Source: a virus (Duplodnaviria; Heunggongvirae; Uroviricota; Caudoviricetes). Taken from it: a DNA stretch of 56,022 nucleotides. Below are positions 851 to 36,030 of the stretch, one piece after another. The notes beneath the pieces were generated by a model. That model searched no databases. It saw nothing but the letters and a program-made list of their open reading frames with translations, and was not told where the DNA came from. Within the stretch, counting starts at the first letter, position 1; every line of letters begins with the position of its first letter. The position numbers and the translations under genes were made by a program. The stretch lies in the IMG/VR virus record IMGVR_UViG_2534681672_000003, positions 1-56,022 of that record. The stretch is one strand, 5' to 3'.

Positions 851-1150
851 TCACCCACGATTAACCAACAGCCAGACCAGCAGACACGCCACCACCGGCA
901 CAGCAAAATCCATCAGACTTGCTACATCCCATGCACGTGGGTCAAAACCGCCCCACCACGGCATATTCATACGCTTGCCATGCCCGAACATTTCAATCCA
1001 GCGATATTCTGCCTGGGTATGTTCACGCGCAATGAAGAACGTACAACCGGCTATCGCCCCGTAAGCCCAGTTCCCGGTAAAAAGACCAATCAGTAGCTGC
1101 GCAGCCACAGCACAAAGCGCATGAAGGAAAGGTGTTATATCCATTTTCAT
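851..1150 (-). CDS. small hydrophobic membrane protein, unknown function
   Basis: ORF track (trimmed to ATG after an AGGA-like RBS); two hydrophobic stretches; no family recognised. Confidence 0.3.
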   Translation of the reverse strand: MKMDITPFLHALCAVAAQLLIGLFTGNWAYGAIAGCTFFIAREHTQAEYRWIEMFGHGKRMNMPWWGGFDPRAWDVASLMDFAVPVVACLLVWLLVNRG

Positions 1151-1186
1151 CCTACCCAATAAAACGGGGCGCTCGGCCCCTTAATA

Positions 1187-2227
1187 TTATTTAGACGCAA
1201 GCGCCGCATCAATTGCAGATAATCTTTGTCTTAATTCTGCGTTTTCTTCTTCCAGTGCTGTTATTCTGTCGTCTGACTCTCTGGCTACCTGAACAAGCAA
1301 GCCAGTAACACCAGAATAATCTACTGTGTAATAACGTTCACCTTCTTCACCTTCCGATCCGCTCGCACCGTCCTGATATTTCATTGCGGAACCTACAACT
1401 TCTGGGATTGCTTCCAGAGCTTCCTGTGCAATGACACCAGCATAGGGCATACCGTTTTCTTTAAGCGTGTATGTATAGCCGTTCATTTTACGGATGCGGT
1501 CGGTTGCATTATCGATCACCTGAATGTTGTCTTTCAGATCCCGGTCGGAATGCTGGTTAAATGCGGTGGCATGACATGCACCATTAACGCTTAACATATA
1601 GGTGTTATCGGTATTTTTCTGCGCATAGAACATATAAGCGCCACCATCAACACCGACTTCATAAACAACAGGACGGCTGGAGTTGCCCCACAATTGAGCA
1701 GTAACACCAGCATAAGCGGTTCCCTGTGTGTTTAATGTCATGGTTGACCCATGATTGGCATATTTGATCTGTAATGTGTCGGTGTAATCAAATTTAATAA
1801 GCGCGTTACTTCCACGCTTGCTGTATGACATAAGGCAGTTACCCATTTTGAGGTATCCGCTGTCACCGGGAAAAATCATCGTACCGCCATAAAGGTTGGT
1901 AAAGTCCCAGCAAATGTTTGTCCCGTTATCGTTCAGGTTAAGGCGCGCCATTGCGTTACCTGGACTGTCTATCCATTTTTTGAGGTATAGTTCGCAATAC
2001 GCATCCTCAACACCTGCCGTCCTGTGAGTTGAGCGGAGTTTTCTCCCAAATATAGCTCCGCTAGTTGGCAATACCTGCTGATACCATGAAACAGACCAGT
2101 CACCAACGATTTCATCTTTGCTGTCTACATATAATTTTGTTGCGTAGCTTCCTTGATCGTTTTTTAATTTGCTAACGTCGGATTTTAGCGTTTTGATGTC
2201 ATCAGGAATTACTGTCGATGTAGCCAT
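1187..2227 (-). CDS. tail fibre or tailspike protein with C-terminal intramolecular-chaperone (peptidase S74-like) domain
   Basis: C-terminal SDRDLKDNI...AGVIAQEALE motif followed by coiled-coil ITALEEENAELRQRL; GAGGAAG RBS; downstream of stf. Confidence 0.6.
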   Translation of the reverse strand: MATSTVIPDDIKTLKSDVSKLKNDQGSYATKLYVDSKDEIVGDWSVSWYQQVLPTSGAIFGRKLRSTHRTAGVEDAYCELYLKKWIDSPGNAMARLNLNDNGTNICWDFTNLYGGTMIFPGDSGYLKMGNCLMSYSKRGSNALIKFDYTDTLQIKYANHGSTMTLNTQGTAYAGVTAQLWGNSSRPVVYEVGVDGGAYMFYAQKNTDNTYMLSVNGACHATAFNQHSDRDLKDNIQVIDNATDRIRKMNGYTYTLKENGMPYAGVIAQEALEAIPEVVGSAMKYQDGASGSEGEEGERYYTVDYSGVTGLLVQVARESDDRITALEEENAELRQRLSAIDAALASK

Positions 2228-2236
2228 TTTTCTTCC

Positions 2237-2518
2237 TCACATCCAGCCACGAAGTTGATGCTCAACAGCAACCACGTATTCATCGAATATTGACGATATT
2301 TGCGAATCATTAATGATGCGCACGTTTACAAAATATCCGTCTTCCTTAACACATACCGGTTCGCCATCTTCAGTCAGTTCTCCAGTTTCTTTGTACACAT
2401 TACCTATCACGTCAATAAGAATATCATCCTGCATCGACTCGTCATCATAATAGCCAATGCTCTCCATAAAGGCCGAAAAGTCGGCCCTGTCTGCAAATTT
2501 GAGTGTTAAATCTTTCAT
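2237..2518 (-). CDS. hypothetical phage protein (tail-fibre region)
   Basis: 93-aa ORF with strong RBS, start overlapping the stf stop; no family recognised. Confidence 0.4.
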   Translation of the reverse strand: MKDLTLKFADRADFSAFMESIGYYDDESMQDDILIDVIGNVYKETGELTEDGEPVCVKEDGYFVNVRIINDSQISSIFDEYVVAVEHQLRGWM

Positions 2519-17352: not shown

Positions 17353-18141
17353 TTACGCCAGTTGTACGGACACGAACTCATCAGGGTCAGCCAGCAGCAT
17401 CAGCGGTGCTGACTGAATCATGGTGAACTCACGCGCCGGATCGCCGGTGGTCACCCAGTTTTTCGGGTAGCGGGCAGAGGCGTTAATGCCTTCGCGCTGT
17501 GCGTCCGCATCCTGAATGCAGCCATAGGTGCGCAGACCGCGTGCCTGAGTGTTCCCCAGCACCATCGTGTTGTCCGGCAGGAAGTTCTTTTTGACGCCGT
17601 TTTCCACGTACTGTCCGGAATACACGACGATGGCCACATCGCCATACATTCCCTTATAGGACACCGCTTTGCCCAGGTCTTTTACCGCTGTCTCCAGCTC
17701 GGAATGAGAGCCGCGACGGGTATCCAGCTTCTCCCTGACGGCTTTGAAAGAACGGAACAGCGCCCAGCCTTTCGGATCAAACACGATGATATTCACCACA
17801 CCGCTGGCGTTCAGCGCGTAGGCTTCGATATCGTCTGTCGGGTCATACGTGGACTTGTCACGCTTGCTCCACTCCGTGCCGCCGGACTGCGTGATGTTAT
17901 TCGCCTCACTGCGGCCCATATCCACCTCAACCGGATCGAAGGCTTCACCGGTCATGGTGTATTTGCCCTTAAGCACGGCAGAAACTGCCTGCATCTCTTC
18001 GACCTGAGCAATGGCCAGCTCTTCGTCACGCATGTTCTGCATGATGATGCGACGGCGGCGGTAAGTCGGGTCCGCCAGATTCTGCGGATCTTCATCCGGC
18101 AGGCGACGCAGGGTCATCTGCGGATTCACCTCATGCTTCGG
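17353..18141 (-). pseudogene. E: major capsid protein E, 3' fragment (codons from ...PKHEVNPQMTLRRLPDED to the stop)
   Basis: Lambda E C-terminal two-thirds; upstream reading frame hits a stop immediately past 18141, where unrelated AT-rich sequence begins. Confidence 0.9.
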
Positions 18142-18143
18142 CT
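18134..18143. repeat. left copy of 10-bp direct repeat TGCTTCGGCT (att core or target duplication)
   Basis: Identical 10-mer at 29567-29576; both copies lie in E codons K-P-K. Confidence 0.75.
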
Positions 18144-18220
18144 ACATGAGTCAAATATGAAAGGATGTGAATGATTTGATTACGTTTTAGCTATAGAATT
18201 GAAATGGAAAATCCTTGAAT

Positions 18221-18240
18221 GCAATACAACGTGCAATACA
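18221..18240. promoter_or_regulatory. candidate integrase arm-type site GCAATACAA-CGT-GCAATACA (left arm)
   Basis: Same motif in the same orientation at 29419-29438 near the other junction. Confidence 0.5.
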
Positions 18241-18277
18241 TGGATGAAAACCATCACTCATTTAACAAGAGGAATCT

Positions 18278-19183
18278 ATGCGCTCACCCAACAGAATGCA
18301 TGAACGCTCAACATTTTATAAGTATATGTCGTTGAATACCGCGAAGATTGTTCTTGATTCATGCAGCCTTAGATGGAGTTCTCCGGTCCTATTTAATGAC
18401 CCTTTTGATGTTCCAAGAGAAGTTATGCCTGGTATTAACGAAATTAATATTGGCAAAGCTTTAGCCCGCAAGTTAATAGCGGAGTTGATTACCCCCAGAG
18501 AAGACATACAAAATTTAAACCCTAGAATTAGAACAATGCTAAGTGATTTCCAAAAGTCATTTCCTTTAGGCATACCCGCAGGATTAATTGAAAGATTTCA
18601 AGAAATGGTAAACATTCCACCAGTTGGGATTGGCGCTCCTGCGGCAATACAAGAAATGAAAGATGTCTGGCGAGGAATGCTTAATAACAGAAGGATTTTG
18701 TGTTTATCTGAGAGCCCTATAATCACTCCTATGTGGAATCACTATGCCGATAAATATAAAGGTATAGTTATCGAATTTGATTGTGTAGACTTTCTGGATA
18801 GCGCTTGGTTAATAGCCAAACCTATGAAATACACAGATGAAATGCCTCTAACTCACACTGCTGAAGGGATGGCCGAGTTGCTTTTCATGCCAGACAATAA
18901 GTCAATTGAATATATCAATAATGAGATAATATTCATAAAAACAGAAGAATGGGCATATGAAAGAGAGTGGAGAATTTCAACCTACGCTAGGCCAAATAGC
19001 ACTGGTCAATATAGCGACTTAAAATTTCACCCTTTTGAGTTAAAATCTGTAATACTTGGTCCTCTTTTTGATGCCAGCGAGTTCGATGAAGTCGCATCAC
19101 TAGTTAAGATGTATCCAAGAGCGAAATTATTTAAAAGTTCATTTGGGAACGACAGAAAAATATCCATAGTACCACTACCTTAA
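18278..19183 (+). CDS. DUF2971 family protein (AT-rich cargo; candidate anti-phage function)
   Basis: N-terminal YKYMSLNTAKIVLDSCSLRWSSPVLFNDPFD matches the DUF2971 signature as recalled; AAGAGG RBS; low GC. Confidence 0.65.
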   Translation: MRSPNRMHERSTFYKYMSLNTAKIVLDSCSLRWSSPVLFNDPFDVPREVMPGINEINIGKALARKLIAELITPREDIQNLNPRIRTMLSDFQKSFPLGIPAGLIERFQEMVNIPPVGIGAPAAIQEMKDVWRGMLNNRRILCLSESPIITPMWNHYADKYKGIVIEFDCVDFLDSAWLIAKPMKYTDEMPLTHTAEGMAELLFMPDNKSIEYINNEIIFIKTEEWAYEREWRISTYARPNSTGQYSDLKFHPFELKSVILGPLFDASEFDEVASLVKMYPRAKLFKSSFGNDRKISIVPLP

Positions 19184-19223
19184 AAGGTCAAATGCTTTTG
19201 ACAAATAAAATCTATCGCCAGTT

Positions 19224-19240
19224 TTACTGGCGACTTTTAA
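19224..19240. terminator. bidirectional hairpin GCCAGT-TTT-ACTGGC between convergent genes
   Basis: Inverted repeat between the DUF2971 stop and the nu1-like stop. Confidence 0.45.
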
Positions 19241-19289
19241 GCAACAAAGAACCACCTAAGCACTCTTCCTACCTATGGTTTCATTTGTT

Positions 19290-19841
19290 TTAACTTCGCT
19301 GATTATCCTTGATATACCTTTCAGCCATATCTGGAATGTTATCTGAGATCTGGTAAGCTCGAATAAATGCTTTACTGACCTCCATCTTAATGAAGTCCTG
19401 ATACCGTTTTCCCATGCCAGGAAACTGTCGACAGATCGCAAGTGGAAGACTATCAATGATTGCTCCAACTTCCCCAGTTAATTTCGACAAGGCATAAGTC
19501 GCAAATGCAGTGTCAATTACCTCACCTGTTTCGCTGGCATTCTTCAGTTCCTGTGCGTCGGCCTGCGCACGCGTAAGTCGATGGCGTTCATACTCAATAG
19601 TCCCTGGCAGGAGATCTGCCTCGCTGGCCTGCCGCAGTTCTTCAACCTCCCGGCGCAGCTTTTCGTTCTCAATTTCAGCATCCCTTTCGGCATACCATTT
19701 TATGACGGCGGCAGAGTCATAAAGCACCTCATTACCCTTGCCACCGCCTCGCAGAACGGGCATTCCCTGCTCCTGCTAGTTCTGAATGGTACGGATACTC
19801 GCACCGAAAATGTCAGCCAGCTGCTTTTTGTTGGCTTCCAT
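19290..19841 (-). pseudogene. nu1-like small terminase subunit paralogue with in-frame TAG at codon 22 (possible restart at Met27)
   Basis: First two-thirds nearly identical at DNA level to helper nu1 (35283-35828) except TGG to TAG at 19776-19778; C-terminal third diverged. Confidence 0.7.
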
Positions 19842-19859
19842 TGTTCATTCCACGGACAA

Positions 19860-20060
19860 AACCAGAGAAAGGAAACGACAGAGGCCAAAAAGCCTGTTTT
19901 TAGCACCTGTCGTTTCCTTTCTTTTTAGGGGGTGTTTTTAATAAAAACATTAAGTTACGGCGAAGAAGAACGGAAACGCCTTAAACAGGAAAATTTTCAC
20001 AAATAGCGAAAAACTGCGCGCCTGACGCCCCGTAGCCTGTCAGATCGCCGGAAAGGACCC
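19860..20060. other. element cos site (cosB-like R-site sequences plus variant cosN at about 20019-20030)
   Basis: Aligns to helper cos at 35838-36030; flanks conserved, 12-nt overhang positions differ. Confidence 0.65.
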
Positions 20061-20086
20061 GCCAGCCAGAGCGGGCCCTAATTTCA

Positions 20087-20470
20087 TCAACCAATCAGCT
20101 TATAGCGACCATCCCGTGCATTGCGGCGTACACGCTCAATCTTGAGGCATAGCGCCGCATCTGGCTTTTTTGGGACAGGTACGCGGCAATATTCAGAAGC
20201 GCGAGGAATATTATTTATCCAGTCGATCACTTCACTTAAATACCAGGCCTTACGCCCTTCCGTAACCTGCACACGCTCCGGGAACTCTCCACTAGCCTCA
20301 AGGTTTAGCAGTGTACGACGACTCAGGGTTGTAATTTCCATCACCTGATTCATATCAACAAGGCGCTCGCTTAAACACATTTTGTCAGCGATAGCTTTTA
20401 ATTCCTCTACAGCTGGATTCGGGTACATCATTTCGGCAATTGGCTTAAGGTCATTGTAATCATTCTGCAT
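20087..20470 (-). CDS. AlpA/Xis-type HTH DNA-binding protein
   Basis: Motif TTLSRRTLLNLEASGEFPERVQVTEGRKAWYLSEVIDWI; AGGGGG RBS; last gene of the capsid operon, ending about 57 bp from cosN. Confidence 0.6.
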   Translation of the reverse strand: MQNDYNDLKPIAEMMYPNPAVEELKAIADKMCLSERLVDMNQVMEITTLSRRTLLNLEASGEFPERVQVTEGRKAWYLSEVIDWINNIPRASEYCRVPVPKKPDAALCLKIERVRRNARDGRYKLIG

Positions 20471-20481
20471 TGTATCCCCCT

Positions 20482-20823
20482 TTACACACGAGCCAGCGGC
20501 TGAACAGAAATACCTGAGCCAACAAACGCTGCAACCTTTACTGACAGTTCTTTAACAGACTCAGGCCAGTTCAGAGCATCAACATTTAAGACACCTGTCT
20601 TATAGACCTGAGCCTGTGTTTTTTTCGCGGTGTCGATTTGTACAGCGGAAACATAAACCGCTTTACCTACGCTCGAACCATCCCATACCACCAGTGCACC
20701 TGTTGCATCTTCCTGCATCAGTGGCGTAAATGCAGGAATTACCCCTTTATTAGCTGAAAATATCCCCAGCGTAGTCACCAGTGCTTCAGTGCCAGCCATG
20801 AGTTCAGTGTAATGAGTAGCCAT
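20482..20823 (-). CDS. head decoration protein, lambda D-like
   Basis: Alignable by eye to helper D (TPLM, WDG, YK-G, WPE, AF-G-IS shared); AGGGGGAG RBS. Confidence 0.7.
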   Translation of the reverse strand: MATHYTELMAGTEALVTTLGIFSANKGVIPAFTPLMQEDATGALVVWDGSSVGKAVYVSAVQIDTAKKTQAQVYKTGVLNVDALNWPESVKELSVKVAAFVGSGISVQPLARV

Positions 20824-20832
20824 TGCTCCCCC

Positions 20833-21873
20833 TTAGCCAATGCGAACGGTAACAAAACGATTGATGCGGGCCGGTATTGGCTGTGGTGCTGAATGTGTCT
20901 GCACATATTCAATAGCCGGATCACCAGGCACAATATAGTTTTTCGGTGCAAGTTCGGCTTTAGTCAGCCCCATTCGGATTAGCTCCGGATCCTGAATACC
21001 GCCATAGGCGACAATCCCCTGAAGAGCCGTATTGCCAAGCACCATCAAATCAGGATCAAGGAAATGTTTTTCTGTTCCGTCCTCGTCGGTATAACGCCCG
21101 CTGTAAACAACAATCGCAACATCGCCCATATACCCTTTAAAACTCACCGAATCACCAAGGTCTTTAAGGGCCGTTTCCAGTTCGGAATTAGAACCACGAC
21201 GGGTATCCAAAGCCTCTTTTATCGCTCTGAATGAACGGTATTTCTTCCATACATTACCACCCATAATGATGATATTAGTGACGCCCTCACTAAATTCTGC
21301 GTAGCTCTCAATATCATCATTTGGATCAAAAGTTTCTTTATCCTTACCTGACCACTCAGTACCGCCAGACTGAGTGATGATATTTTGTGGTTTTATATTC
21401 CAGTCCAGCTCATAACGTTCAATACCATCGCCCTCAATGATATTTTTCCCCGTTGTGATAGCCTGAACAGCAAGCCATTCAATACGTGCACGAATAGCTT
21501 TAGCCTGATTTACAATCGCCTGTTTAACTTTAATATTACGCGCCCCAAAAGCATTGTATTGCTCAGGTGACACACCAGCAGGGCGCACAGCTAACTTATT
21601 TGGATCAATGCTGCTTTTCGGCTTCATATAACCTGGACGAATTGTTTTTGATTCGTATCCCTCATCTCGTGAAACTTTACTGCCCACCATAGGAGAGCAA
21701 AACGCCGCGATCGGGATATTTGGATCGTCGATCGTATCAAGAATAATGTCTCTCGATTCAAACATTACCGAGCGAGTGAAAAACAAACTGGTAAACAACG
21801 CATTTAATTTTTTTTGTACATCTACAGCATTAACCACCTGTACAAGCTGAGTAGGCGAATATAAATCAACCAT
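20833..21873 (-). CDS. major capsid protein, lambda E-like (HK97 fold)
   Basis: 346 aa, alignable over the full length to helper E (ITQSGGTEWS, ALDTRRGSNSELETA, DVAIVVYSG shared); start trimmed to the ATG after AAGAGG. Confidence 0.8.
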   Translation of the reverse strand: MVDLYSPTQLVQVVNAVDVQKKLNALFTSLFFTRSVMFESRDIILDTIDDPNIPIAAFCSPMVGSKVSRDEGYESKTIRPGYMKPKSSIDPNKLAVRPAGVSPEQYNAFGARNIKVKQAIVNQAKAIRARIEWLAVQAITTGKNIIEGDGIERYELDWNIKPQNIITQSGGTEWSGKDKETFDPNDDIESYAEFSEGVTNIIIMGGNVWKKYRSFRAIKEALDTRRGSNSELETALKDLGDSVSFKGYMGDVAIVVYSGRYTDEDGTEKHFLDPDLMVLGNTALQGIVAYGGIQDPELIRMGLTKAELAPKNYIVPGDPAIEYVQTHSAPQPIPARINRFVTVRIG

Positions 21874-22074
21874 ACGCATCCTCTTTGCATTCATTAAAAA
21901 TAATTGTGGATATATGCTATCACCGATATTTGTCATGCGAACACATGCAACCGAGTGCAATGTTGTATAAAGTTTTGGGGTGACAACTTCAGTGCGGACA
22001 ATTAGTGTTAATATCTTCACTCCCTTTGGTCGGGATTTATGTAGCATGCAGGAAAATTTATTTTTTCCGGCCTT

Positions 22075-22792
22075 TTTGTGCACAGAAAACCCCCAGCTAG
22101 GCTGGGGGTTCCGGAAAGCTTTCAGCTTTGAGCCAGTTATTAAAACCCCTTTTGATTTGTTAAAACACTTTGCGGTCTGGCAACTGCAAGTGTCAAACAA
22201 GAAATCAAAAGGGGGTCCCAATGGGGAACGAAAAGAGCTTAGCGCACACCCGATGGAACTGTAAATATCACATAGTTTTTGCGCCAAAATACCGAAGACA
22301 GGTGTTCTACAGAGAGAAGCGTAGAGCAATAGGCAGTATTTTGAGAAAGCTGTGTGAGTGGAAAAGCGTACGGATTCTGGAAGCTGAATGCTGTGCAGAT
22401 CATATCCATATGCTTGTGGAGATCCCGCCCAAAATGAGCGTATCCGGGTTTATGGGATATCTGAAAGGGAAAAGCAGTCTGATGCTTTACGAGCAGTTTG
22501 GTGATTTGAAATTCAAATACAGGAACAGGGAGTTCTGGTGCAGAGGGTACTACGTCGATACAGTGGGTAAGAACACGGCGAAGATACAGGATTACATAAA
22601 GCACCAGCTTGAAGAGGATAAAATGGGAGAGCAGTTATCGATTCCCTATCCGGGCAGCCCGTTTACGGGCCGTAAGTAACGAAGTTGGATGCAAATGTCA
22701 GATCGTGTGCGCCTGTTAGGGCGCGGCTGGTAAGAGAGCCTTATAGGCGCATTTGAAAAACCTCCGGCTATGCCGGAGGATATTTATTTTAT
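22075..22792 (+). mobile_element. IS200 insertion sequence
   Basis: IS200-type TnpA flanked by terminal hairpins (about 22087-22110 and 22771-22789); boundaries approximate. Confidence 0.8.
22221..22679 (+). CDS. tnpA: IS200 transposase TnpA (Y1/HUH)
   Basis: MGNEKSLAHTRWNCKYHIVFAPKYRRQVFY... matches IS200 TnpA as recalled; trimmed to the ATG at 22221. Confidence 0.92.
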   Translation: MGNEKSLAHTRWNCKYHIVFAPKYRRQVFYREKRRAIGSILRKLCEWKSVRILEAECCADHIHMLVEIPPKMSVSGFMGYLKGKSSLMLYEQFGDLKFKYRNREFWCRGYYVDTVGKNTAKIQDYIKHQLEEDKMGEQLSIPYPGSPFTGRK

Positions 22793-22801
22793 TGGCAATA
22801 T

Positions 22802-23251
22802 TTAAAACGGGATATCATCTCCCCATTGCTCATTATCTCCCACTGGTGGCTGGCTTCCTTGCTGATCTGCCTGTTGTTTTGCTCTGTTCAGTGCGTCAGT
22901 AGCCTGCCCCTGTTGGCCTTTATTGCCGCCCGGTCGCACCGATCGCGCACTGATTACGCTGTCTGCGATAACCTGCCAGCCCTGCCGCGTTTCGCCGTTC
23001 TGTCCAGTCCACTGGCTCATCTGCATGTTACCCGCCACGCTCAGGAGTTCGCCTTTGTGATGCTTTGCCAGCGCGTCGGCTTGTCTGCCAAACGCCAGGA
23101 CAGATAACCACATCGTCGCCTGACCGTCATCCGACTGACTGCAGGGCAGTGATACCGCCATACGCGCCAACGTCATGGGGGTGCCCTTGCTGGTCTGTTT
23201 TGTCTGCGGGTCGTCCACCGACCGCCCGTAAACTGATATTTGCGCCGTCAT
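22802..23251 (-). CDS. SSB-like protein with C-terminal DDIPF tip
   Basis: Ends ...NEQWGDDIPF (SSB acidic-tip motif); glycine/glutamine-rich linker; AT-skewed neighbourhood. Confidence 0.5.
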   Translation of the reverse strand: MTAQISVYGRSVDDPQTKQTSKGTPMTLARMAVSLPCSQSDDGQATMWLSVLAFGRQADALAKHHKGELLSVAGNMQMSQWTGQNGETRQGWQVIADSVISARSVRPGGNKGQQGQATDALNRAKQQADQQGSQPPVGDNEQWGDDIPF

Positions 23252-23493
23252 GCGGCCTGCTCTCCGGACTTAATATTGATTGTTGTCACTTCCTCCGCTT
23301 CAGCAATCTCCCGTTCGGTCAGAGTGGCAAAGTTTGCAGCCGCCGTTGTCATGAATGCGCTAATCAGTTCGGGATGTGCTTTCGCGTATCCTTCCCCGGC
23401 GTTGCGGTCGATGATTTTTATCGACACCCTTAACCAGTGTTCCGTCAAATCAAGGGCGTGCGATTGTGATTTTTTTGTGTGCTTCGCTGTCAT
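23248..23493 (-). CDS. hypothetical protein
   Basis: 81-aa ORF, stop overlapping the SSB-like start. Confidence 0.35.
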   Translation of the reverse strand: MTAKHTKKSQSHALDLTEHWLRVSIKIIDRNAGEGYAKAHPELISAFMTTAAANFATLTEREIAEAEEVTTINIKSGEQAA

Positions 23494-23538
23494 AGGCTTT
23501 ATCTCACAGCAGTAAATTAAAATTTTTGCGTTTTAACC

Positions 23539-23770
23539 CTTCACCTGTTCACCTTTTGATATTTTCTCTTTTAATTCATAATGTTAATGGGTGAACAGTT
23601 TCACAAAAACTATTCACCAACTGTTCACCACTGTTCACCCTTGAAGCTCAATAAACAATCAAAAAGGTGAACAGTGAATAGTTTGGTGAACAGTTCATAA
23701 ATAACTGTTCACCCTATAATATACTGATATAAAAGATATTTATGACAGGGTGAACAGTGGTGAACAGTTA
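23539..23770. repeat. replication-origin iterons, about 9 copies of TGTTCACC / GGTGAACAG in both orientations
   Basis: Octamer recalled as the P4 alpha binding site at ori/crr; lies directly downstream of the primase-helicase gene. Confidence 0.7.
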
Positions 23771-23780
23771 TTCCATAAGT

Positions 23781-25601
23781 TTAATTTTTGCTATCGTCAT
23801 TAGTGACCGATACACATGATGGCATCCAGTCTTCTGATTCCTCCGTCAGGGTCACGTTTGAACGCAAACCGTGCTTCGTTTTCCGTTTCATATACTCCCT
23901 GCCATATTCCGCCATTGCCCCCGGCATATCTTTACCGAAGCGCGTCAGTGTTACAGGTTTACCAAACCCATGTGCCCTCATATAAGCCAGATAGGCATGA
24001 TAGAGATACCTGCGTGGGCTGAATGGCACAATTTCAGCATTACCCACTAACAGGCCATCACACATTACCGATGCCATGAGATAACCGCAGAAGTCCACCA
24101 GCGAATCCCCCTCTCGCTTTATCGCCAGTGCTTCTTCAGATTTCTGCTGCTCATATAACAGGCGTCTGGCTTCGTCCTGATCAGCAAACCTTGTAAGCAG
24201 ATGACGAATCACTACCGCCAGCTCACCTTCTATTTTTTCCGCCAGCATCGAATCGCGTTCGTTCTCCGGTACAACTTCCGAAAAATTGAATATCACCCGA
24301 CGACGTGAGATCCCCCCGCTGCGGTCACTGAATGACATGGCGTTATTGTTAACCGCCAGCACTACTGCCGGAATACGCGTTGAATAGGGGGCTTTGTGTT
24401 TCGGGTCAATTGCCACCTTGTCACCGCCTGTAATGGCCTTAATCCCTGCCCCATCACCAGCGTAGCGGGTCATATCCGGCATGATAATCAGCGAAAAGCC
24501 AACCACTAACGCACGTTCCCTTGCATCTTCCAGCGCCTTCATGCTTGCTGATACTGTATTAGCCTTACCCGCCAGCATGGTGCAAATCTCCGCCATCACA
24601 CTTTTACCACTTCCCCCCGGCCCTGTTACCTCAATGAATAACTGCCAGTCGTACCGGTTCGCCAGCACCATGAATAATGCCGCCAGTACGCGATCTGCCT
24701 TGCGGTCATTCTCAGCCACCGAACGGCGCAACCACTTCCAGAAATTCGGCGCATGTGTTGCCAGCGTTTCCCCCTCTGCTGGTGGGCTGAAAGGTAATTC
24801 ACTGGCAATTAACAACCAGTCGTTTTTGTTATGCTCCCGAAAGTTACCAGTTCTGGTATCAAATACCCCGTTACTGAATCCAATCAGGTTACGGGCTGTA
24901 TTCCCCATTACAGGCAAACTTAACTTCATGGTATCTACCGCCGATTTAATAGCGTTCTGCGAATAGCTGATCTCCGCATCAATGAAAATCTGCGCCATAG
25001 CACGCTGTAACTCTTTATCCTGAACCGGCTCCCATACAACGCCGTTGTAATGATGAACGGTGTCAGAGTCGGCATTGATTGCCAGTTCGCCGCCGTAATG
25101 TGCAAGGAGAACTTCACCGCGCTGGCTGGCCCCCATCTGATTCAACGCCAAAGATGAAGCACGCTCGTCATTTTTGCGCTCAGCCTTCTTCACTGGCAGT
25201 TCAATCACCAGACTTTCCCCATGCTCCGCTTCAGCTTTTAGGCCGACAAGGCGCGGAGTCCAGTCTTCAGGCTCTCGATCAACAAAGCTACGGTAACAAC
25301 GTGCTTCCTTTACGCCTGCAATAGCAAGTAATGTCGCAACCTTCGTCAGACTTTTCTCTGCAATCTTTCCGGCACGATAAACACGCACATAATGACGGCC
25401 TTCATCGATAATTTGCATATCATCCAGGTTTTCCAGTTGTTCCGTACCCAGAATGACTGGTGGTGTATCATCTGCTGCAATATGCTTACCTGCCCATTCA
25501 TTCCATTCTTTTGCATGGCTCCAGGCATCACTGCCAGCAAAAATGATGACTTCCGTCATTTTGTCGCGCGGTTGGTATTTTAAGTTCGGAGCACGTTTCA
25601 T
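23781..25601 (-). CDS. replication initiation primase-helicase (P4 alpha-like, P-loop NTPase)
   Basis: Walker A VTGPGGSGKS; 606 aa; GGAGG RBS; adjacent to the iteron origin. Confidence 0.65.
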   Translation of the reverse strand: MKRAPNLKYQPRDKMTEVIIFAGSDAWSHAKEWNEWAGKHIAADDTPPVILGTEQLENLDDMQIIDEGRHYVRVYRAGKIAEKSLTKVATLLAIAGVKEARCYRSFVDREPEDWTPRLVGLKAEAEHGESLVIELPVKKAERKNDERASSLALNQMGASQRGEVLLAHYGGELAINADSDTVHHYNGVVWEPVQDKELQRAMAQIFIDAEISYSQNAIKSAVDTMKLSLPVMGNTARNLIGFSNGVFDTRTGNFREHNKNDWLLIASELPFSPPAEGETLATHAPNFWKWLRRSVAENDRKADRVLAALFMVLANRYDWQLFIEVTGPGGSGKSVMAEICTMLAGKANTVSASMKALEDARERALVVGFSLIIMPDMTRYAGDGAGIKAITGGDKVAIDPKHKAPYSTRIPAVVLAVNNNAMSFSDRSGGISRRRVIFNFSEVVPENERDSMLAEKIEGELAVVIRHLLTRFADQDEARRLLYEQQKSEEALAIKREGDSLVDFCGYLMASVMCDGLLVGNAEIVPFSPRRYLYHAYLAYMRAHGFGKPVTLTRFGKDMPGAMAEYGREYMKRKTKHGLRSNVTLTEESEDWMPSCVSVTNDDSKN

Positions 25602-25885
25602 TTGTTACCTCCGGCAACTAACATTGCCCGAATTTTACGGATATAGCCTGCGGCACGCCTCTGATTATCTGTCTTGCAATTTTTTACCAGAATGAAATCT
25701 CTTTCGAACTGCTGACGCGGCATAACACATTCAAAATCATAACCATCACGCAAATAAGAGACACGACGATCATCAACCGAAATAATCTTTACCCGATAGC
25801 CATAGCTGTCTTTGAAAATATCCCCAAGGCTGATTTTTGAATGAGTTTGACCGCTGGCAATAAAGCCAGAAAATTTATTTTTCAT
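25598..25885 (-). CDS. hypothetical protein (replication operon)
   Basis: 95-aa ORF with ATGA overlap onto the primase start. Confidence 0.4.
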   Translation of the reverse strand: MKNKFSGFIASGQTHSKISLGDIFKDSYGYRVKIISVDDRRVSYLRDGYDFECVMPRQQFERDFILVKNCKTDNQRRAAGYIRKIRAMLVAGGNK

Positions 25886-25888
25886 TTT

Positions 25889-26113
25889 TTATTCTCCGGT
25901 ATAGCTCTGGTCGTGTATTTTTATAGCTTCATCCAGCTCTTTGATGACAGGATCAAGTAACGTAATTAACGCTCCAGCTAAATTAGCATCCCGTTCATCG
26001 TGTTCCGCATTTGTTGTCCCATCAAGCCAGGTTGATAAGATTTCTCGCATATTTTTGCCACAAACGAGCGCGTTTTCAGCATGTGTCAGCACTTTAAAAT
26101 AAAGATCATTCAT
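25889..26113 (-). CDS. hypothetical protein
   Basis: 74-aa ORF in the same operon. Confidence 0.35.
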   Translation of the reverse strand: MNDLYFKVLTHAENALVCGKNMREILSTWLDGTTNAEHDERDANLAGALITLLDPVIKELDEAIKIHDQSYTGE

Positions 26114-26471
26114 GGCACACCTCCTGACGAATACGGGCGGCGAATATCATCACGTAGCCAGTTGGGAATTGCTGGCGGGCTTCCTGTTCGCTGGCGGCCT
26201 CGATGTGTATTACGCGTGGTTGTGCGGTGCTCAGGGCGATAAAACGCCAGATGAAATTGTTTTCGCATTTCTGAATAAACAGCGTGTTTTCTTCACGCCC
26301 TTTCCAGAAAGCCGCAGTATAGCCCATCTCCTTAACCATCTTGCGGGCATCAACCAGCGTGTCAGCGGCAACATGTACCGTAGTTGCTCCATCTGCCATG
26401 CGGTCGTGGTGTAGTGCCAGAAAGGTGTATATAAATTTAGGGTGAGTTTGGGTATGCTGTGTTCCAGCCAT
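26106..26471 (-). CDS. hypothetical protein, first gene of the leftward operon
   Basis: 121 aa from the ATG after a GAGG RBS; the longer ORF-track version runs antisense through the neighbouring gene and was trimmed. Confidence 0.45.
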   Translation of the reverse strand: MAGTQHTQTHPKFIYTFLALHHDRMADGATTVHVAADTLVDARKMVKEMGYTAAFWKGREENTLFIQKCENNFIWRFIALSTAQPRVIHIEAASEQEARQQFPTGYVMIFAARIRQEVCHE

Positions 26472-26554
26472 AATCGTTACCTCGTTTAACGGTTTGGTTA
26501 GAAGCCCGGTTAGTGTTCGCGCACTGCCGGGTTTCGTCGTTTTTATGAATCGAT

Positions 26555-26670
26555 CATTGTGAGATACATAGCGACCATGATGTGAGATATACATTATAAT
26601 GTGGTGATATACATTGCAAGTGTTTTTATATCTCACTTTTGTGTATAGTGATATACACATAACAAATTGG
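26555..26670. promoter_or_regulatory. divergent promoter/operator region with repeated GTGAGATA(T)ACAT and GTGATATACA motifs
   Basis: At least five direct and inverted copies between the divergent operons. Confidence 0.6.
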
Positions 26671-26679
26671 TGATTAACT

Positions 26680-26982
26680 ATGTCTGTATACAAAAATGCA
26701 AAATCGCAAATGACAACGATCAGGGTTCCCCACGATGTTATGGAGGGCATGGAATCCGTAAAACTGGACGGCGAAAGCAACGCCGGATTCATAGTAACCG
26801 CCATGCGCGGTGAGATCGCCCGCCGCCAGGCAGAAGGAAGCGGAGAAAATCCCCTCGTGTCTTCACTGGATGCCTTAGCTAAGGTCGAACAAATCGGCAT
26901 CAAGGCAGCGGAGGAAATCGGGCAACTCGTAGCCGTCGCTCGTGAAGAACTCCAGCGGCGTAAAGCCAAAGAATCTGAATAA
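26680..26982 (+). CDS. putative ribbon-helix-helix (CopG/Arc-like) regulator
   Basis: TTIRVPHDVMEGMESVKL...NAGFIVTAMRGEI fits a strand-helix-helix pattern; sits beside the operator repeats. Confidence 0.4.
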   Translation: MSVYKNAKSQMTTIRVPHDVMEGMESVKLDGESNAGFIVTAMRGEIARRQAEGSGENPLVSSLDALAKVEQIGIKAAEEIGQLVAVAREELQRRKAKESE

Positions 26983-27332
26983 TTACTATCAGCGCCGTGA
27001 TGTGAGTAACTACGGCGCATTGCTATGTAAATACTGGCAATAAACAGAAAAGGTAGTTCTACTCCGAATAATTTTATCTGACACTACTCCTGAACTAACA
27101 TGCGCTTATCTTACAGGATATAAATATAGATCCATAAAATCACGATTAAATAAAGCCGCTCCAAACATAAACCACACCCAACGCTTAACAAGATAGCAAC
27201 AAACAGATAAATAACTTGCAGAAATATTTATCGCAAGGATTATCATTATTAATTACAAATCACTTTACCAAGTCATTCCCCTCTCTTATCATAAAGAGAA
27301 AGTAATAAATAAGTTAAGGGAGTTAGAATACT

Positions 27333-27869
27333 ATGAATCTAAAAAAAATAGCCACAAACATAAAAAACAAGATAATAGAAACATTCAATAAACTTATATT
27401 AGAGGCATCTAAAACCCCCACACAAGATGAAATTAAAATACTTGAGAGAAGAAGTAAAAAGTTTAATTACTCCTTTTTCTCATACGCAGTCACAGGAGCC
27501 ATAATGGTTTTTTGCTCTCAACCATTAATAAAATACGCAAACCCAATGCTTATTTTATTGAGTGGTCTGTTACTGTCTATCATCATTATCCTTCTCAGAA
27601 TGATTTATATTTCACAAGCGAATGCATCATGGACAACCAAAAAACGTTCACATGTACTAGTTCATTTTCTTTCTGCATGTTTCATAGCGTCAACATTGAC
27701 GTTGTTATATCAGGCTTACGATAATAACATCACACACAAATTGTACTGTAAAAATATACAACAACTTATTGAAAAAAGGATAGAAACAGAAAAAAATATC
27801 AGCATATTCAGTGGGATGCAATGCACCCCGGCATATGATTACTCTTTATTTGGATTTAATCTCTTATAA
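27333..27869 (+). CDS. AT-rich membrane protein (cargo, unknown function)
   Basis: 178 aa, hydrophobic segments, very low GC, preceded by about 300 bp of AT-rich DNA. Confidence 0.5.
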   Translation: MNLKKIATNIKNKIIETFNKLILEASKTPTQDEIKILERRSKKFNYSFFSYAVTGAIMVFCSQPLIKYANPMLILLSGLLLSIIIILLRMIYISQANASWTTKKRSHVLVHFLSACFIASTLTLLYQAYDNNITHKLYCKNIQQLIEKRIETEKNISIFSGMQCTPAYDYSLFGFNLL

Positions 27870-27938
27870 AGAATGTTATTACTGATTTGAGTGCAAATTC
27901 TCAAATCAGTAATTCATAATATTTTATTCTGAGATAAT

Positions 27939-28166
27939 TTAAACTACCCACTCACCTCGAATCCATGCCTGCACTTCTGAAAGACGATATGCAACAGCAG
28001 TGGAGCCAATCTTGATCCGCTTAGGAAATTTCCCTTCCTTCTCCAGCTTCCAGCGTGTGCTGTTCGCAAGAGTGGTTAGCTCCCGACATTCTTTCTCACG
28101 GATCATACGATCGATGTTAGGAATGTACTCCAAACCCTTTTTATCAACAATCGCCATTTTTTTCAT
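27939..28166 (-). CDS. alpA: AlpA-family transcriptional regulator/excisionase
   Basis: 75 aa with AlpA-type HTH (LTTLANSTRWKLEKEGKFPKRIKIG); directly downstream of int. Confidence 0.75.
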   Translation of the reverse strand: MKKMAIVDKKGLEYIPNIDRMIREKECRELTTLANSTRWKLEKEGKFPKRIKIGSTAVAYRLSEVQAWIRGEWVV

Positions 28167-28167
28167 G

Positions 28168-29403
28168 TTAACCAGCCTTTTGTTTGAGGATTATCACTTT
28201 TGAATCAGCACCTGCGATGCTATTGAGATATGTAGTCCAGAGTTCCAGAGCATCCAGTTTTTTAGCCATAAACTTACTCCGGTTGTAAACACCTGCCACG
28301 CCAGGTAGCGCATGGCCTAACAGTTGTTCTACTACATAAAATTCAACACCGAGATCACTTAGATGAGTAGATAGCGTTCTTCTAAGGTCGTGTAGTGACC
28401 ATTGTTTTTCATGGCCCAAACGTTTACCGATTTTCCCCCCAATCTTGCTTACGCTTTCTCTAATTCGCAGACTTCCCAGCACATAACCAGTATGTTTTGT
28501 CTCTTCGTGAACATCCGTTACCCACTGTCGTAGAATTTCAGGTACTGGTCTGACGATTTCAACACCAGTTTTTGAGTGATCTTTTGGTACCGTCCAAACC
28601 CAACTTTCGAGATCCCATTCGCTCCATTCAGATAATCGGGCTTCACTCATTCGACATCCAAATACTGTACAAAGCACAAACATTTTTCGCGTGTATTCAG
28701 ACATTAGTTTTAAATCAGGCTCGACAAAAATTGCCTTCCAGAGCTGGCCCAGTTCGGCTTCATCCAGAACCCGATCCCGCTTACCTGCAATCTGCCCCAC
28801 ATCACTCATGCGCAAATCCTTTAAAGCATCACATGTCGCGTACTGGCGTACCCGACAAAAACGAAGAGCTAATTTAGTGTCAGAAAAAACATACGCCGCC
28901 ATAACTGGTGCATTACGTTTAATTCGGTCAAAACAGTCCAGCCATTCATATAGGTGAGTGTCATTTACAGGCAAATGACCGATATAGGGAAAGATATGCT
29001 TTCGAAATCTGCCAAGCGTTACAGCATGAGTTTTACGACGCACCTTACAGTAATTTTCATACCAGTAATTTAGTGCATCCTCCACTGTGACCGGCTTTAA
29101 GCGTTCTTCAGCCTGAATCTTAATCTGGATACGCGGATCACGTTTGTCAGCCAACCAACCACGGCACTCGTCGCGCTTTTCCCTTGCCTGTTTGAGTGAC
29201 ATATCAGGATATTTACCCAACGTTAGCCAGACCGGAGCAGCCCGGCCACCTGCTAACCTGTAGAAGAAAACAAAGCTCACAGCCCCCTTGGTACTCACAC
29301 GAATAGAAAGCCCCTTTCCATCAGCAATGGTGATCTGCTTTTCTCTGGGTTTCCCCAGATATCCTTTAAGCGCTTTGTCGCTCAGTTTGTTCTCGCCAGC
29401 CAT
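28168..29403 (-). CDS. int: tyrosine integrase, P4/CP4-57 family with N-terminal arm-binding domain
   Basis: N-terminus LSDKALKGYLGKPREKQITIADGKGLSIRVSTKG; C-terminal HDLRRT...LLGH...Y catalytic motifs; trimmed to the ATG at 29403. Confidence 0.85.
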   Translation of the reverse strand: MAGENKLSDKALKGYLGKPREKQITIADGKGLSIRVSTKGAVSFVFFYRLAGGRAAPVWLTLGKYPDMSLKQAREKRDECRGWLADKRDPRIQIKIQAEERLKPVTVEDALNYWYENYCKVRRKTHAVTLGRFRKHIFPYIGHLPVNDTHLYEWLDCFDRIKRNAPVMAAYVFSDTKLALRFCRVRQYATCDALKDLRMSDVGQIAGKRDRVLDEAELGQLWKAIFVEPDLKLMSEYTRKMFVLCTVFGCRMSEARLSEWSEWDLESWVWTVPKDHSKTGVEIVRPVPEILRQWVTDVHEETKHTGYVLGSLRIRESVSKIGGKIGKRLGHEKQWSLHDLRRTLSTHLSDLGVEFYVVEQLLGHALPGVAGVYNRSKFMAKKLDALELWTTYLNSIAGADSKVIILKQKAG

Positions 29404-29418
29404 TTTTAGCCCCAAAAA

Positions 29419-29438
29419 GCAATACAAGCTGCAATACA
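29419..29438. promoter_or_regulatory. candidate integrase arm-type site GCAATACAA-GCT-GCAATACA (right arm)
   Basis: Matches the left-arm motif at 18221-18240. Confidence 0.5.
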
Positions 29439-29566
29439 GAGATGATTGCAACACACAGATAACGAGGAAAATTCAGTGAAAGCGCCAGATAAACTTATTC
29501 TTTATTATCAAAAGATTAAGTGTAAAAACCAGCAACTACACGAAAGCCTCAGAAAGCCATGCTAAG

Positions 29567-29576
29567 TGCTTCGGCT
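29567..29576. repeat. right copy of 10-bp direct repeat TGCTTCGGCT
   Basis: Identical to 18134-18143. Confidence 0.75.
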
Positions 29577-29866: not shown

Positions 29867-30199
29867 TTAAACGATGCTGATTGCCGTTCCGGCAAACGCG
29901 GTCCGTTTTTTCGTCTCGTCGCTGGCAGCCTCCGGCCAGAGCACATCCTCATAACGGAACGTGCCGGACTTGTAGAACGTCAGTGTGGTGCTGGTCTGGT
30001 CAGCAGCAACCGCCAGAATGCCAACGGCAGCACCGTCGGTGGTGCCATCCCAAGCAACCAGCTTACGGGTGGAGGTGTCCAGCATCAGCGGGGTCATTGC
30101 AGGCGCTTTCGCACTCAATCCGCCGGGCGCGGTTGCGGTATGAGCCGGGTCACTGTTGCCCAGCGGCTGGTAATGGGTAAAGGTTTCTTTGCTCGTCAT
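29867..30199 (-). CDS. D: head decoration protein D
   Basis: [12 protein letters not shown]... matches lambda D. Confidence 0.95.
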
Positions 30200-30208
30200 A
30201 AACATCCC

Positions 30209-31581
30209 TTACACTGGTGTGTTCAGCAAATCGTTAACGGCATCAGATGCCGGGTTACCTGCCGCCAGCGGTGTCGGTGCCCCCTGCATCAGACGATCCA
30301 GCGCAGTGTCACTGCGCGCCTGTGCACTCTGTGGTGCTGCGGCCAGAATGCGGCGGGCCGTTTCCACGGTCATACCGGGGGTTTCTGCCAGCACGCGGGC
30401 CTGTTCTTCGCGTCCGTGAGCCTCCTCACAATTGAGGATCCCCATAATGCGGCTGTTTTCTGCCGCAACCGCTGCGGTGATCTGTGCGTTCACGTCCGGC
30501 TGCGCCGCGCTGGCGTTCTCGCCCTCTGTCGCTGACACCACGTCAGTAACGTCAGCCTGCAAAGCAGTGGCTGAAACAGTTGTTGATTGAGTCTCTTTGG
30601 TCATTCGCCCTCCTGAGAGACGGGATTTACGTGCATCCAGTGCCTCACGCATAACGGTGATCGCATCGGTGCTGTTGACAAGTTCATCAGCCAGTCCGGC
30701 ATCAATGGCCTCCTGACCGCTGTACACTGCAGCCTCGGTATCCAGCACAGCCTGCACGGACAGGCCGGTATATGCCGACACCTTCTGCGCAAACATCCGG
30801 CGGGTTGCATCCATCCGGGACTGCAGTGTCTCCCGGACGTCATCCGGAAGATGGCTGTAGGGGTTGCCATCCACCTTATGGCTGCCGCTGTAAATCAGCG
30901 TGATTTCCACGCCCTGTTTCTCCAGCGCAGCACCGTTTGCCATCCACCTTATGGCTGCCGCTGTAAATCAGCGTGATTTCCACGCCCTGTTTCTCCAGCG
31001 CAGCACCGTAATTACTGTGAGCCATCATGACGCCGATGGAGCCTGTCCGGGCGGTCTGCGTGACCAGACGCCGGGAGGCGGCACTGGCAAGCAACTGACC
31101 TGCACTGCAGTTCATGTCGTTGGCAAGCGTCCATACCGGTTTTATGTCACGCACACGGGCGATGATGTCAGCGCAGTCAAATGCCCCCGCCACCATCCCG
31201 CCGGGCGTGTCCATATCGAGCAGAATGCCGTCCACCATCGGATCGCTGGCAGCCTGTTGCAGACGGGCGATAATGCCGTTGTAACCGGTCATCCCCGAGT
31301 ACGGCTGCAGCGCCCGCGTCCGGCTGACCAGCGTGCCGGACACCGGCAGCACGGCGATGCCGTTCATGACCTGATAACTGCGGGCCTGTCGTGGTCCGTC
31401 ATCATCACCGGATAATGCCAGCGTCGCGAGTGCCTCCTGGGCAGTCAGGCTGTCGCCGGACACCGCATCCGTCAGGCGGCTGATCCCAAGCTGGCCTGCA
31501 AGCGCACAAAAGAAAACCCGCGCATAGGCGGGTTCAAGCATCAGCGGCTCATTAAAGGCCATACTGGCAATATGCGGGAGA

Positions 31582-31602
<21 letters not shown>
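30209..31602 (-). pseudogene. C: head protease/scaffold gene C (with nested Nu3), frameshifted by a 73-bp tandem duplication
   Basis: Lambda C sequence is split over two ORF-track frames (30876-31715 and 30209-30943) with AALEKQGVEITLIYSGSHKVDG encoded twice; GTG start after a GGAGGAG RBS. Confidence 0.85.
30864..31009. repeat. perfect 73-bp tandem duplication (2 copies) inside gene C
   Basis: 30864-30936 is repeated at 30937-31009; 73 is not a multiple of 3. Confidence 0.85.
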
Positions 31603-35282
<3,680 letters not shown>

Positions 35283-35837: not shown

Positions 35838-36030
35838 CACGGCCAAAAACAGAGAAAGGAAACGACAAAGGCCCAAAAGTTCGTTTTCAGCACCTGTCGT
35901 TTCCTTTCTTTTCAGGGGGTATTTTAAATAAAAACATTAAGTTACGACGAAGAAGAACGGAAACGCCTTAAACCGGAAAATTTTCATAAATAGCGAAAAC
36001 CCGCGAGGTCGCCGCCCCGTAACCTGTCGG
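35838..36030. other. prophage cos site (cosB R sites plus cosN; 12-nt cohesive end at 36006-36017)
   Basis: Plus strand AGGTCGCCGCCC is the reverse complement of lambda GGGCGGCGACCT; flanks match the lambda genome ends as recalled. Confidence 0.9.

Follow-up and report, generated by a model that had tools for sequence, protein, structure and literature searches.

What is the role of capsid genes carried by a satellite that lies within the capsid gene of its own helper? The question is raised by a lambdoid prophage in which the major capsid gene E is split by an insert encoding an E-like protein and a D-like protein. The window, i.e. the whole stretch of DNA that was analysed, has a length of 56,022 nucleotides (positions 1 to 56,022 of IMG/VR record IMGVR_UViG_2534681672_000003).

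Results

The helper E gene is split by an insert flanked by a 10-bp core

The lambdoid prophage in the window is read on the minus strand and has argU/DLP12 as its site; the window spans the composite from intD at the tRNA-Arg to the tail fibre genes. E. coli SCU-102 (NZ_CP051753.1) is almost identical to the window; across 42 kb, the two are distinguished by four SNPs and a single duplication of 73 bp. The helper E gene is present as two fragments and the helper D gene is intact (Table 1); moreover, the helper C gene is frameshifted in the window copy. Between the two E fragments, i.e. at ~18.1–29.6 kb, the GC content is 0.32–0.51 compared to 0.57–0.60 in the flanking helper head genes, delimiting an insert of 11.4 kb.

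The 10-bp core AGCCGAAGCA was found exactly twice in the window, where 0.16 copies are expected by chance, and the two copies mark the two junctions of the insert. Joining the core copies in silico removed 11,433 bp and gave an intact helper E of 341 aa. A preliminary description of this locus had stated that the only intact capsid gene in the window is that of the element; this is correct for the integrated state but no longer applies after recombination at the core, by which helper E is restored.

Table 1. Coordinates of the features of the insert and of the adjoining helper genes in the window
Feature	Position	Strand	Basis
Helper E, C-terminal fragment	17353..18133	-	ORF calls, junction, RefSeq annotation
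att core AGCCGAAGCA, second copy, integrase-distal junction; helper E frame resumes	18134..18143	-	Junction sequence read
Helper-embedded PICI of 11capE type	18144..29576	-	GC drop and identity to NRG857c 11capE
Cargo gene, DUF2971 protein, adjoining the att junction	18278..19183	+	Pfam DUF2971 1e-09; PADLOC PDC-S31 2.5e-32
Nu1-family small-terminase gene, 183 codons, with premature stop	19290..19841	-	Pfam Phage_Nu1 1.3e-63, matched downstream of the stop
Lambda-type cos region (cosQ, cosN, cosB)	19842..20065	-	93% identity to the helper cos/Nu1 region, 558 bp
AlpA-family helix-turn-helix protein, 127 aa, third member of the module	20087..20470	-	Pfam Phage_AlpA 7.6e-09; PHROG 2790 1.1e-49
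D-like predicted head decoration protein, 113 aa, satellite lineage	20482..20823	-	Pfam, BLASTP and PDB sequence matches
E-like predicted major capsid protein, 346 aa, satellite lineage, ATG at 21873	20833..21873	-	Pfam, PDB, structural model
IS200C insertion between ssb and the E-like gene, ends approximate	22077..22785	+	Pfam Y1_Tnp 5.3e-38; alignment with NRG857c
Replication zone: SSB (22802-23251), 81-aa ORF, D5/P4-type primase-helicase (23781-25601)	22802..25601	-	Pfam and RefSeq annotation
Integration zone: tyrosine integrase (28168-29403), AlpA (27939-28166)	27939..29403	-	Pfam and RefSeq annotation
Helper E, N-terminal fragment, first 82 codons	29566..29811	-	ORF calls, junction, RefSeq annotation
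att core AGCCGAAGCA, integrase-proximal junction, inside helper E	29567..29576	-	Junction sequence read directly
Helper head decoration gene D, intact	29867..30199	-	ORF calls, RefSeq annotation

According to Pfam, PHROG and RefSeq annotation, the zones of the insert follow each other in the order int-AlpA, Icd-like/DUF4222, primase-SSB, and E-D-AlpA-like-cos-terS-cargo; small regulatory ORFs on the minus strand are also present. Except for the DUF2971 cargo gene on the plus strand, the genes of the element are on the minus strand, as are the helper late genes. By its matches, the product of the cargo gene is a candidate anti-phage defence protein; in sister copies, the cargo position is occupied by a TIR protein or by DUF262 and HEPN proteins. 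As proposed in the preliminary description, the insert is a satellite that lacks portal, protease, large terminase and tail genes, none of which is present in the RefSeq annotation of the near-identical record. Similarly, portal, protease and connector were not detected in Pfam and PHROG scans of the tested element ORFs, and neither TerL nor HNH genes were detected in the insert by Pfam and RefSeq annotation. Finally, an Rfam scan of the element gave no P4-like immunity RNAs (C4/isrK) at the gathering threshold; the sole match, at 22088–22211, was the IS200-associated STnc490.

The insert is a copy of the published element 11capE

11capE is an island of E. coli NRG857c that was named by Tommasini, Mageeney & Williams in 2023 and served as their founding example of helper-embedded PICIs (HE-PICIs; PMC10111431). 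Its insertion site is a 10-bp identity block within an E gene of lambda type; it has an E-family capsid gene of its own and was reported in 201 instances at the same site (PMC10111431). For NRG857c, the same authors showed by experiment that induction is followed by excision of the satellite from the replicating composite. The insert in the window was 97.9% identical to the DNA of NRG857c 11capE over 81% of its length, and the encoded proteins were identical to those of 11capE at 409 of 411 (integrase) and 605 of 606 (primase) residues, or to 99.4% (capsid), 99.1% (decoration) and 100% (AlpA-like). Judged by these identities, the insert is a copy of 11capE and, thus, represents a known type of element; likewise, the match at 409 of 411 residues to the 11capE type integrase assigns the integrase to the HE-PICI clade. 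Moreover, at the site E:Phage_cap_E, all HE-PICI features that we checked were present, i.e. E is split, the core occurs twice, and excision in silico restores E. The order of the zones in the insert also corresponds to that of HE-PICIs, in which an integration zone is followed by a Bro zone, a replication zone and a late zone.

The two elements share the 10-bp core and its location in an E gene of lambda type, and they agree in orientation and gene order. By contrast, the window copy has IS200C upstream of the E-like gene, carries the DUF2971 gene in place of the DUF262 and HEPN genes of NRG857c, has a full-length terS gene with a premature stop instead of a 64-aa remnant, and is located in a helper at argU/DLP12, whereas that of NRG857c is at icd. 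As early as 2018, homologues of the E/D pair had been described for PICIs of E. coli by Fillol-Salom et al. (PMC6092414). The novelty that the preliminary description had seen in the element and in its E/D pair is therefore superseded by these two reports.

The element has the features of Gram-negative PICIs, i.e. int, alpA and pri-rep, unidirectional genes, a size of 11.4 kb (within ~10–20 kb) and no lysis or tail genes. The absence of phage structural genes does not strictly hold for it because the E and D genes are present; the prototype EcCICFT073 also carries E/D structural genes (PMC6092414), and a major capsid gene was reported in 21 of 29 reference Gram-negative PICIs (PMC10111431).

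With cf-PICIs, e.g. EcCIEDL933, the element shares int, alpA, a replication gene, its own major capsid protein and the lack of tail genes. However, the gene set of cf-PICIs also comprises protease, portal, head-tail connectors, HNH, TerS and TerL and gives rise to complete small heads (bioRxiv 10.1101/2022.09.08.507074), whereas the element in the window has only shell, cement and a broken small-terminase gene. We therefore reject cf-PICI membership: although the element has its own capsid protein, genes for portal, protease, connector, HNH and TerL are all missing from it. This agrees with the preliminary description, which had set the element apart from the HK97-type modules of cf-PICIs because its E and D genes are divergent and of the lambda type.

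The E-like and D-like proteins match the gpE and gpD families

The E-like protein matched the Pfam family Phage_cap_E (PF03864) over profile positions 4–327 of 329 (E = 9.5e-42) with a score of 143.6 bits, compared to a curated cut-off of 22.9, and in an alignment with the reconstructed helper E, 145 of 337 aligned residues were identical (43%). Full-length sequence matches in the PDB were 3BQW (9.4e-122) and lambda gpE (7VI9, 1.6e-77). An AlphaFold model computed with 51 homologues (pLDDT 81, pTM 0.82) superposed on 3BQW with a TM score of 0.91 and on lambda gpE (7SJ5) with a TM score of 0.87. A fused scaffold domain is absent from the E-like protein, as it is from lambda gpE. The profile, the PDB matches and the model confirm the E-like protein as a full-length capsid protein of the lambda E family with a predicted gpE fold.

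The D-like protein matched the Pfam family HDPD (PF02924; E = 4.5e-15, 56.3 bits compared to a cut-off of 29.1), and its identity to helper D was 40% in a global alignment and 38% by BLASTP. Its PDB sequence matches were SHP of phage 21 (1TD0, 4.7e-16) and lambda gpD (1C5E, 1e-11). At the level of sequence, the D-like protein is thereby confirmed as a decoration protein of the gpD family.

Both genes are preceded by a Shine-Dalgarno sequence, AGAGGA in the case of the E-like gene and AGGGGGAG in the case of the D-like gene, and both reading frames on the minus strand are intact. In total, the full-length likeness of the two proteins to helper gpE and gpD, which the preliminary description had noted by eye, was borne out by profile and structure comparisons, the latter by means of the model for the E-like protein and by sequence matches to the gpD and SHP structures for the D-like protein; the same is true for the ribosome-binding sites. 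Thus, the pair belongs over its full length to the same Pfam families as lambda gpE and gpD (7VI9, 7SJ5, 1C5E) and phage 21 SHP (1TD0), but differs from the lambda proteins in an identity of only 43% (E) and 38–40% (D) and in being encoded in a satellite rather than in a phage head operon.

The identity between the E-like protein and helper E was ~30% over the N-terminal ~150 residues and ~60% over residues 165–275. In the lambda capsid, the N-terminal part of gpE contains the N-arm and the E-loop, which bind gpD. That divergence in E is concentrated in this gpD-binding region would fit a co-adapted E/D pair; in the D-like protein, the part most diverged from helper D is the N terminus.

In the E-like gene, the site homologous to the att site reads AGCCGAAAAGCA and not AGCCGAAGCA, and integration of the element into its own E-like gene is, therefore, unlikely. 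The mismatch between the core and the element's own capsid gene was also remarked on by Tommasini et al. (PMC10111431).

The E/D pair forms a branch seen in PICI-like elements

Among 50,697 phage records, 437 matches to the E-like protein were found, all with less than 60% identity, and the top-listed of these (lambda and its relatives) were 42.6% identical. In the protein database, identities to the E-like protein were continuous from 99% to ~52% and then dropped to 46% or less, where E proteins of the phage type begin. The genomic contexts that we examined, counted as 10, comprised the window (together with SCU-102 as one), TUM14697, NRG857c, CFT073, Kluyvera, Superficieibacter, Cedecea, Kosakonia, Edwardsiella, Lelliottia and Serratia. 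All were PICI-like, with int-AlpA-primase upstream and the D-like gene directly after the E-like gene. As judged from the records searched and the contexts examined, the E/D pair is a branch of its family found only in PICI-like elements.

In EcCICFT073, the capsid protein c1499 and the head decoration protein c1500 are 55% and 54% identical to the pair in the window, compared to 43% and 38% for the phage proteins. c1499 is the protein crystallised as PDB 3BQW, so that the structure of a homologue has been available since 2008. As in the window, the D gene of EcCICFT073 directly follows the E gene and int-alpA-pri is located upstream; by contrast, EcCICFT073 is integrated in the chromosome and not within a helper, the genes after the pair are an unrelated one of 137 aa and Rpp, where the window has the AlpA-like gene and the Nu1-type terS, and the cosB of EcCICFT073 differs from that of the phage. 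We reject a recent capture of the E/D genes from the helper: the E-like protein is only 43% identical to helper E, the top-listed phage matches reach 42.6%, and the EcCICFT073 pair is closer (55%).

The E-D-AlpA module is conserved and portable

The E-like, D-like and AlpA-like genes are closely spaced, with 9 nt from the E-like stop to the D-like start and 11 nt from the D-like stop to the AlpA-like start. A contig scan with the E-like protein gave four loci, which formed the basis for dN/dS and synteny; the AlpA-like gene was syntenic in five orthologous loci. Compared to orthologues in other genera, dN/dS was 0.02–0.07 for E, 0.06–0.11 for D and 0.09–0.17 for the AlpA-like gene; synonymous sites were almost saturated, and none of seven orthologues contained an internal stop. 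We conclude that the E/D pair, with dN/dS of 0.02–0.11, is under strong purifying selection. A reading of the pair as pseudogenes or relics is rejected by the same dN/dS values and the intact frames in all seven orthologues.

Of 5426 complete genomes of E. coli, 365 contained the E-D-AlpA trio and 173 the specific junction with helper E. The module occurs together with unrelated integrases and, in Serratia, with a DUF927 replicase, and it is also found at fis-linked chromosomal PICI sites. In Edwardsiella, it is part of a satellite embedded in the portal gene of a helper in which E and D are intact. In a PICI of Lelliottia, a C-like S49 peptidase gene adjoins the E/D pair; the presence of such a peptidase beside the pair in some relatives points to a role in head building. 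Altogether, these occurrences indicate that the module moves between PICIs that differ in integrase, replicase and integration site.

The captured capsid gene was proposed to be a backup copy, and the redundancy was called 'not essential' (PMC10111431). As the sole role of the pair, a backup for the split E gene is weakened by the presence of the pair in the portal-embedded satellite and in PICIs at fis sites: where helper E and D are intact, as in Edwardsiella, replacing a split E cannot be the whole role.

Packaging features and lesions of the window copy

The element carries a cos region of the lambda type and a small-terminase gene of the Nu1 type, neither of which was mentioned in the preliminary description. 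The 12-mer of the satellite cosN at 20019–20030 reads GGGCGTCAGGCG, while that of the helper reads GGGCGGCGACCT; five of 12 bases differ. The Nu1-type gene is helper-like in its 5' half and divergent in its 3' half, and has an in-frame TAG at codon 22 (19776–19778). The TAG allele is common to SCU-102 and MLI106K3, while 95-3322 and E203449 have intact alleles of 183 aa; moreover, the Nu1-type gene is intact in related elements of Kosakonia and Superficieibacter, in which it has a different N-terminal domain. The type copy in NRG857c has only a 64-aa terS remnant, in agreement with the published statement that 11capE lacks terS (PMC10111431).

A terminator-like hairpin is present on the minus strand at 22761–22779 in the IS200 region upstream of the E-like gene. 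IS200 with its hairpin may sever the E-like gene from upstream transcription in the window copy and, together with the stop in the small-terminase gene, may impair the system in this copy.

Discussion

With moderate confidence, we propose that the E-like and D-like genes are the shell and cement genes of a HE-PICI of the 11capE type, integrated at the core in helper E by its own tyrosine integrase, and that their products form a matched set on helper parts. Because the element is unable to make a head by itself, the pair, after late expression, would assemble on the portal, the scaffold and the protease of the helper (B, C/Nu3). Satellite concatemers would next be packaged into these heads by the helper terminase via the satellite cos, and the satellite's own Nu1-type small terminase would also be used in copies in which it is intact. 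In this way, the satellite would be independent of helper D and of helper E, which is interrupted until excision. That the D-like gene directly follows the E-like gene in all contexts examined supports that the two form a matched pair.

Several observations count against a shell role. In EcCICFT073, deletion of c1499 or c1500 neither relieved interference with lambda nor affected transfer by the resident helper, and all DNA that was packaged had the size of phage DNA (PMC6092414). The preliminary description had offered a capsid-forming satellite or a capsid-interference system as possible readings, and these deletions argue against both; c1499 and c1500 are only 55% and 54% identical to the pair in the window, so that the knockouts are an indirect test of this pair. 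In our literature searches, we found no later functional study of PICI E/D genes. Moreover, virions of the 11capE/50icd composite were not detectable in the published induction experiments (PMC10111431). Finally, the occurrence of the pair beside intact helper E and D in Edwardsiella counts against a shell role, as does the possible block of E-like transcription by IS200 in the window copy.

Three rival explanations each fit the conservation of the pair or the published data less well. The pair could be accessory, i.e. consist of captured late genes that are kept for a reason outside satellite particle making, for example linked AlpA-like regulation, a store of recombination sequences or a benefit with rare helpers; after excision, all satellite DNA would then be in heads made entirely of helper proteins. 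The lack of a transfer or interference phenotype of the c1499 and c1500 knockouts (PMC6092414) agrees with this, as do the description of the redundancy as 'not essential' and the dynamic capture and loss of late genes in the late zones of PICIs (PMC10111431). Nevertheless, we regard an accessory role as unlikely given the very low dN/dS at saturated synonymous sites across five genera and the joint retention of E and D in 10 of 10 contexts examined; moreover, the lineage appears old and distinct from every sequenced phage searched, which argues against a recent capture. The pair could also act by poisoning heads, with the two proteins co-assembling or competing with gpE and gpD of the helper or of superinfecting lambdoid phages. 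Interference with helpers is a general trait of PICIs (PMC6092414, PMC6739421), a shell protein with 43% identity that shares blocks in its C-terminal half and has diverged over its N-terminal ~150 residues would be a plausible poison subunit, and the candidate defence cargo adjoins the module. However, poisoning leaves the constant retention of a cognate D-like gene unexplained, lambda interference by EcCICFT073 persisted in either deletion (PMC6092414), and this interference is explained by Rpp (PMC6739421), making a device of this kind more unlikely still.

In the least likely of the three, the E-like protein would redirect capsid size, driving the formation of small heads with room for one genome of ~11 kb but not for the helper genome of ~45 kb, which is about four times as large as that of the satellite. 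Ccm of SaPIbov5, as cited in PMC6092414, offers a precedent: it is a satellite homologue of the major capsid protein of the helper, belongs to a cos-packaged island and makes small heads, and PmCI172 is suspected of doing likewise. By contrast, the EcCICFT073 relative of the window lineage packaged DNA of phage size only (PMC6092414), the element in the window has a cognate decoration gene in addition to the capsid gene, and it lacks a size-determining scaffold gene. Furthermore, four copies of 11.4 kb, i.e. ~46 kb, would fill a head of lambda size. We consider redirection of capsid size very unlikely.

A bolder form of the proposed shell-plus-cement role would place the element between classical PICIs and cf-PICIs, as a 'shell-only' intermediate in which the heads containing satellite DNA would be formed by the satellite proteins and not by helper gpE and gpD. 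We offer this tentatively and think it unlikely to be correct. Assembly would again take place on the same three helper components, the heads may be altered in size or stability, and the interruption of helper E would ensure that early heads are of the satellite type. The EcCICFT073 knockouts would have missed such a role because the helper used had an intact and compatible E.

The type of element, its insertion in E, its own capsid gene, the E/D pair of PICIs and the structure of one homologue were already published. Our analysis adds an E/D branch seen only in satellites, strong purifying selection on this branch, and a portable E-D-AlpA module that is also present in PICIs in which helper E is intact. 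Together, these observations pose a puzzle: a matched shell-cement pair is kept under strong selection, yet knockouts of its homologues have no phenotype in the laboratory. Despite the IS200 insertion, the nonsense terS allele and the frameshifted helper C gene, the window is a convenient natural test case. If the pair builds heads on the helper portal and scaffold, such elements would provide a missing link from satellites dependent on helper capsids to satellites that make their own, and the interruption of the helper capsid gene would be part of a strategy of capsid substitution.

Extent of the composite prophage and the state of helper gene C

The end of the window coincides exactly with the start of intD, adjoining tRNA-Arg, and the window therefore covers the entire composite prophage at the DLP12/argU site (1-56022). 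Helper cargo in this stretch includes emrE, ybcK, iss and an Ail/Lom gene.

The helper head gene C contains a 73-bp perfect tandem duplication (30864-31009), and because of this duplication the gene is broken into two overlapping ORFs (see table). If the duplication is real, the helper would be defective for prohead maturation. Alternatively, it could be an assembly artefact. The duplication is missing in the record of E. coli SCU-102 (NZ_CP051753.1), which is otherwise near-identical to the window.

Features of the helper and of satellite copies, with coordinates in the window unless another locus is named
Feature	Coordinates	Description
Helper head gene C	30876-31715 and 30209-30943	S49 peptidase with nested Nu3 scaffold; two overlapping ORFs
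GC-rich hairpin and T-run	22761-22779	Minus strand; at IS200C end, facing element transcription
IS200C insertion	~22077-22785	Between ssb and E-like gene
IS200C tnpA	22170-22679	
Rfam STnc490 match	22088-22211	Within IS200C
Second AlpA-family gene	20087-20470	127 aa; PHROG 2790; tightly linked, downstream of D-like gene
Satellite small-terminase gene	19290-19841	Nu1 family
Cargo, window	18278-19183	DUF2971 protein; PADLOC candidate defence family PDC-S31 (2.5e-32)
Cargo, TUM14697 copy	L002 6491-7633	TIR-domain protein
Cargo, NRG857c copy	L003 1061-2777	DUF262 and HEPN proteins

Small terminase, cos and cargo of the satellite

In the satellite, the cos region and the 5' half of the Nu1-family gene share ~93% identity with the helper. 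The 3' half of the gene, which holds the gpA-binding region of Nu1, is divergent. This divergent half is carried by 32 of 5426 complete E. coli genomes. In the window, W22 of the gene is replaced by TAG (19776-19778); the alleles in strains 95-3322 and E203449 are intact and encode 183 aa. The 12-base cohesive end at cosN is GGGCGTCAGGCG in the satellite (20019-20030) versus GGGCGGCGACCT in the helper (36006-36017), i.e. with five differences. The surrounding cosQ and cosB are almost identical between the two.

Between the terS/cos region and the att junction, the satellite has a cargo site whose contents vary; those of three copies are listed in the table.

The E-like/D-like pair in related satellites

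The same E-like/D-like pair is present in a related satellite of Edwardsiella tarda (L011 765-12681), even though its helper retains intact E and D genes downstream. This satellite sits in the helper portal gene, splitting the Phage_portal_2 ORFs. In Lelliottia sp., a PICI adjoining fis has a fuller head module than the satellite in the window: E-like, D-like and a gene C-like 447-aa S49 peptidase are consecutive (L013 10001-12752), and a Phage_HCP-family protein is encoded close to AlpA.

The second AlpA-family gene is kept alongside the pair in five other genera; by contrast, the model PICI EcCICFT073 lacks it.

Upstream of the pair, the NRG857c and TUM14697 copies lack IS200C in the ssb/E-like interval. 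The hairpin and T-run at the IS200C end in the window could insulate the E-like and D-like genes from upstream promoters.
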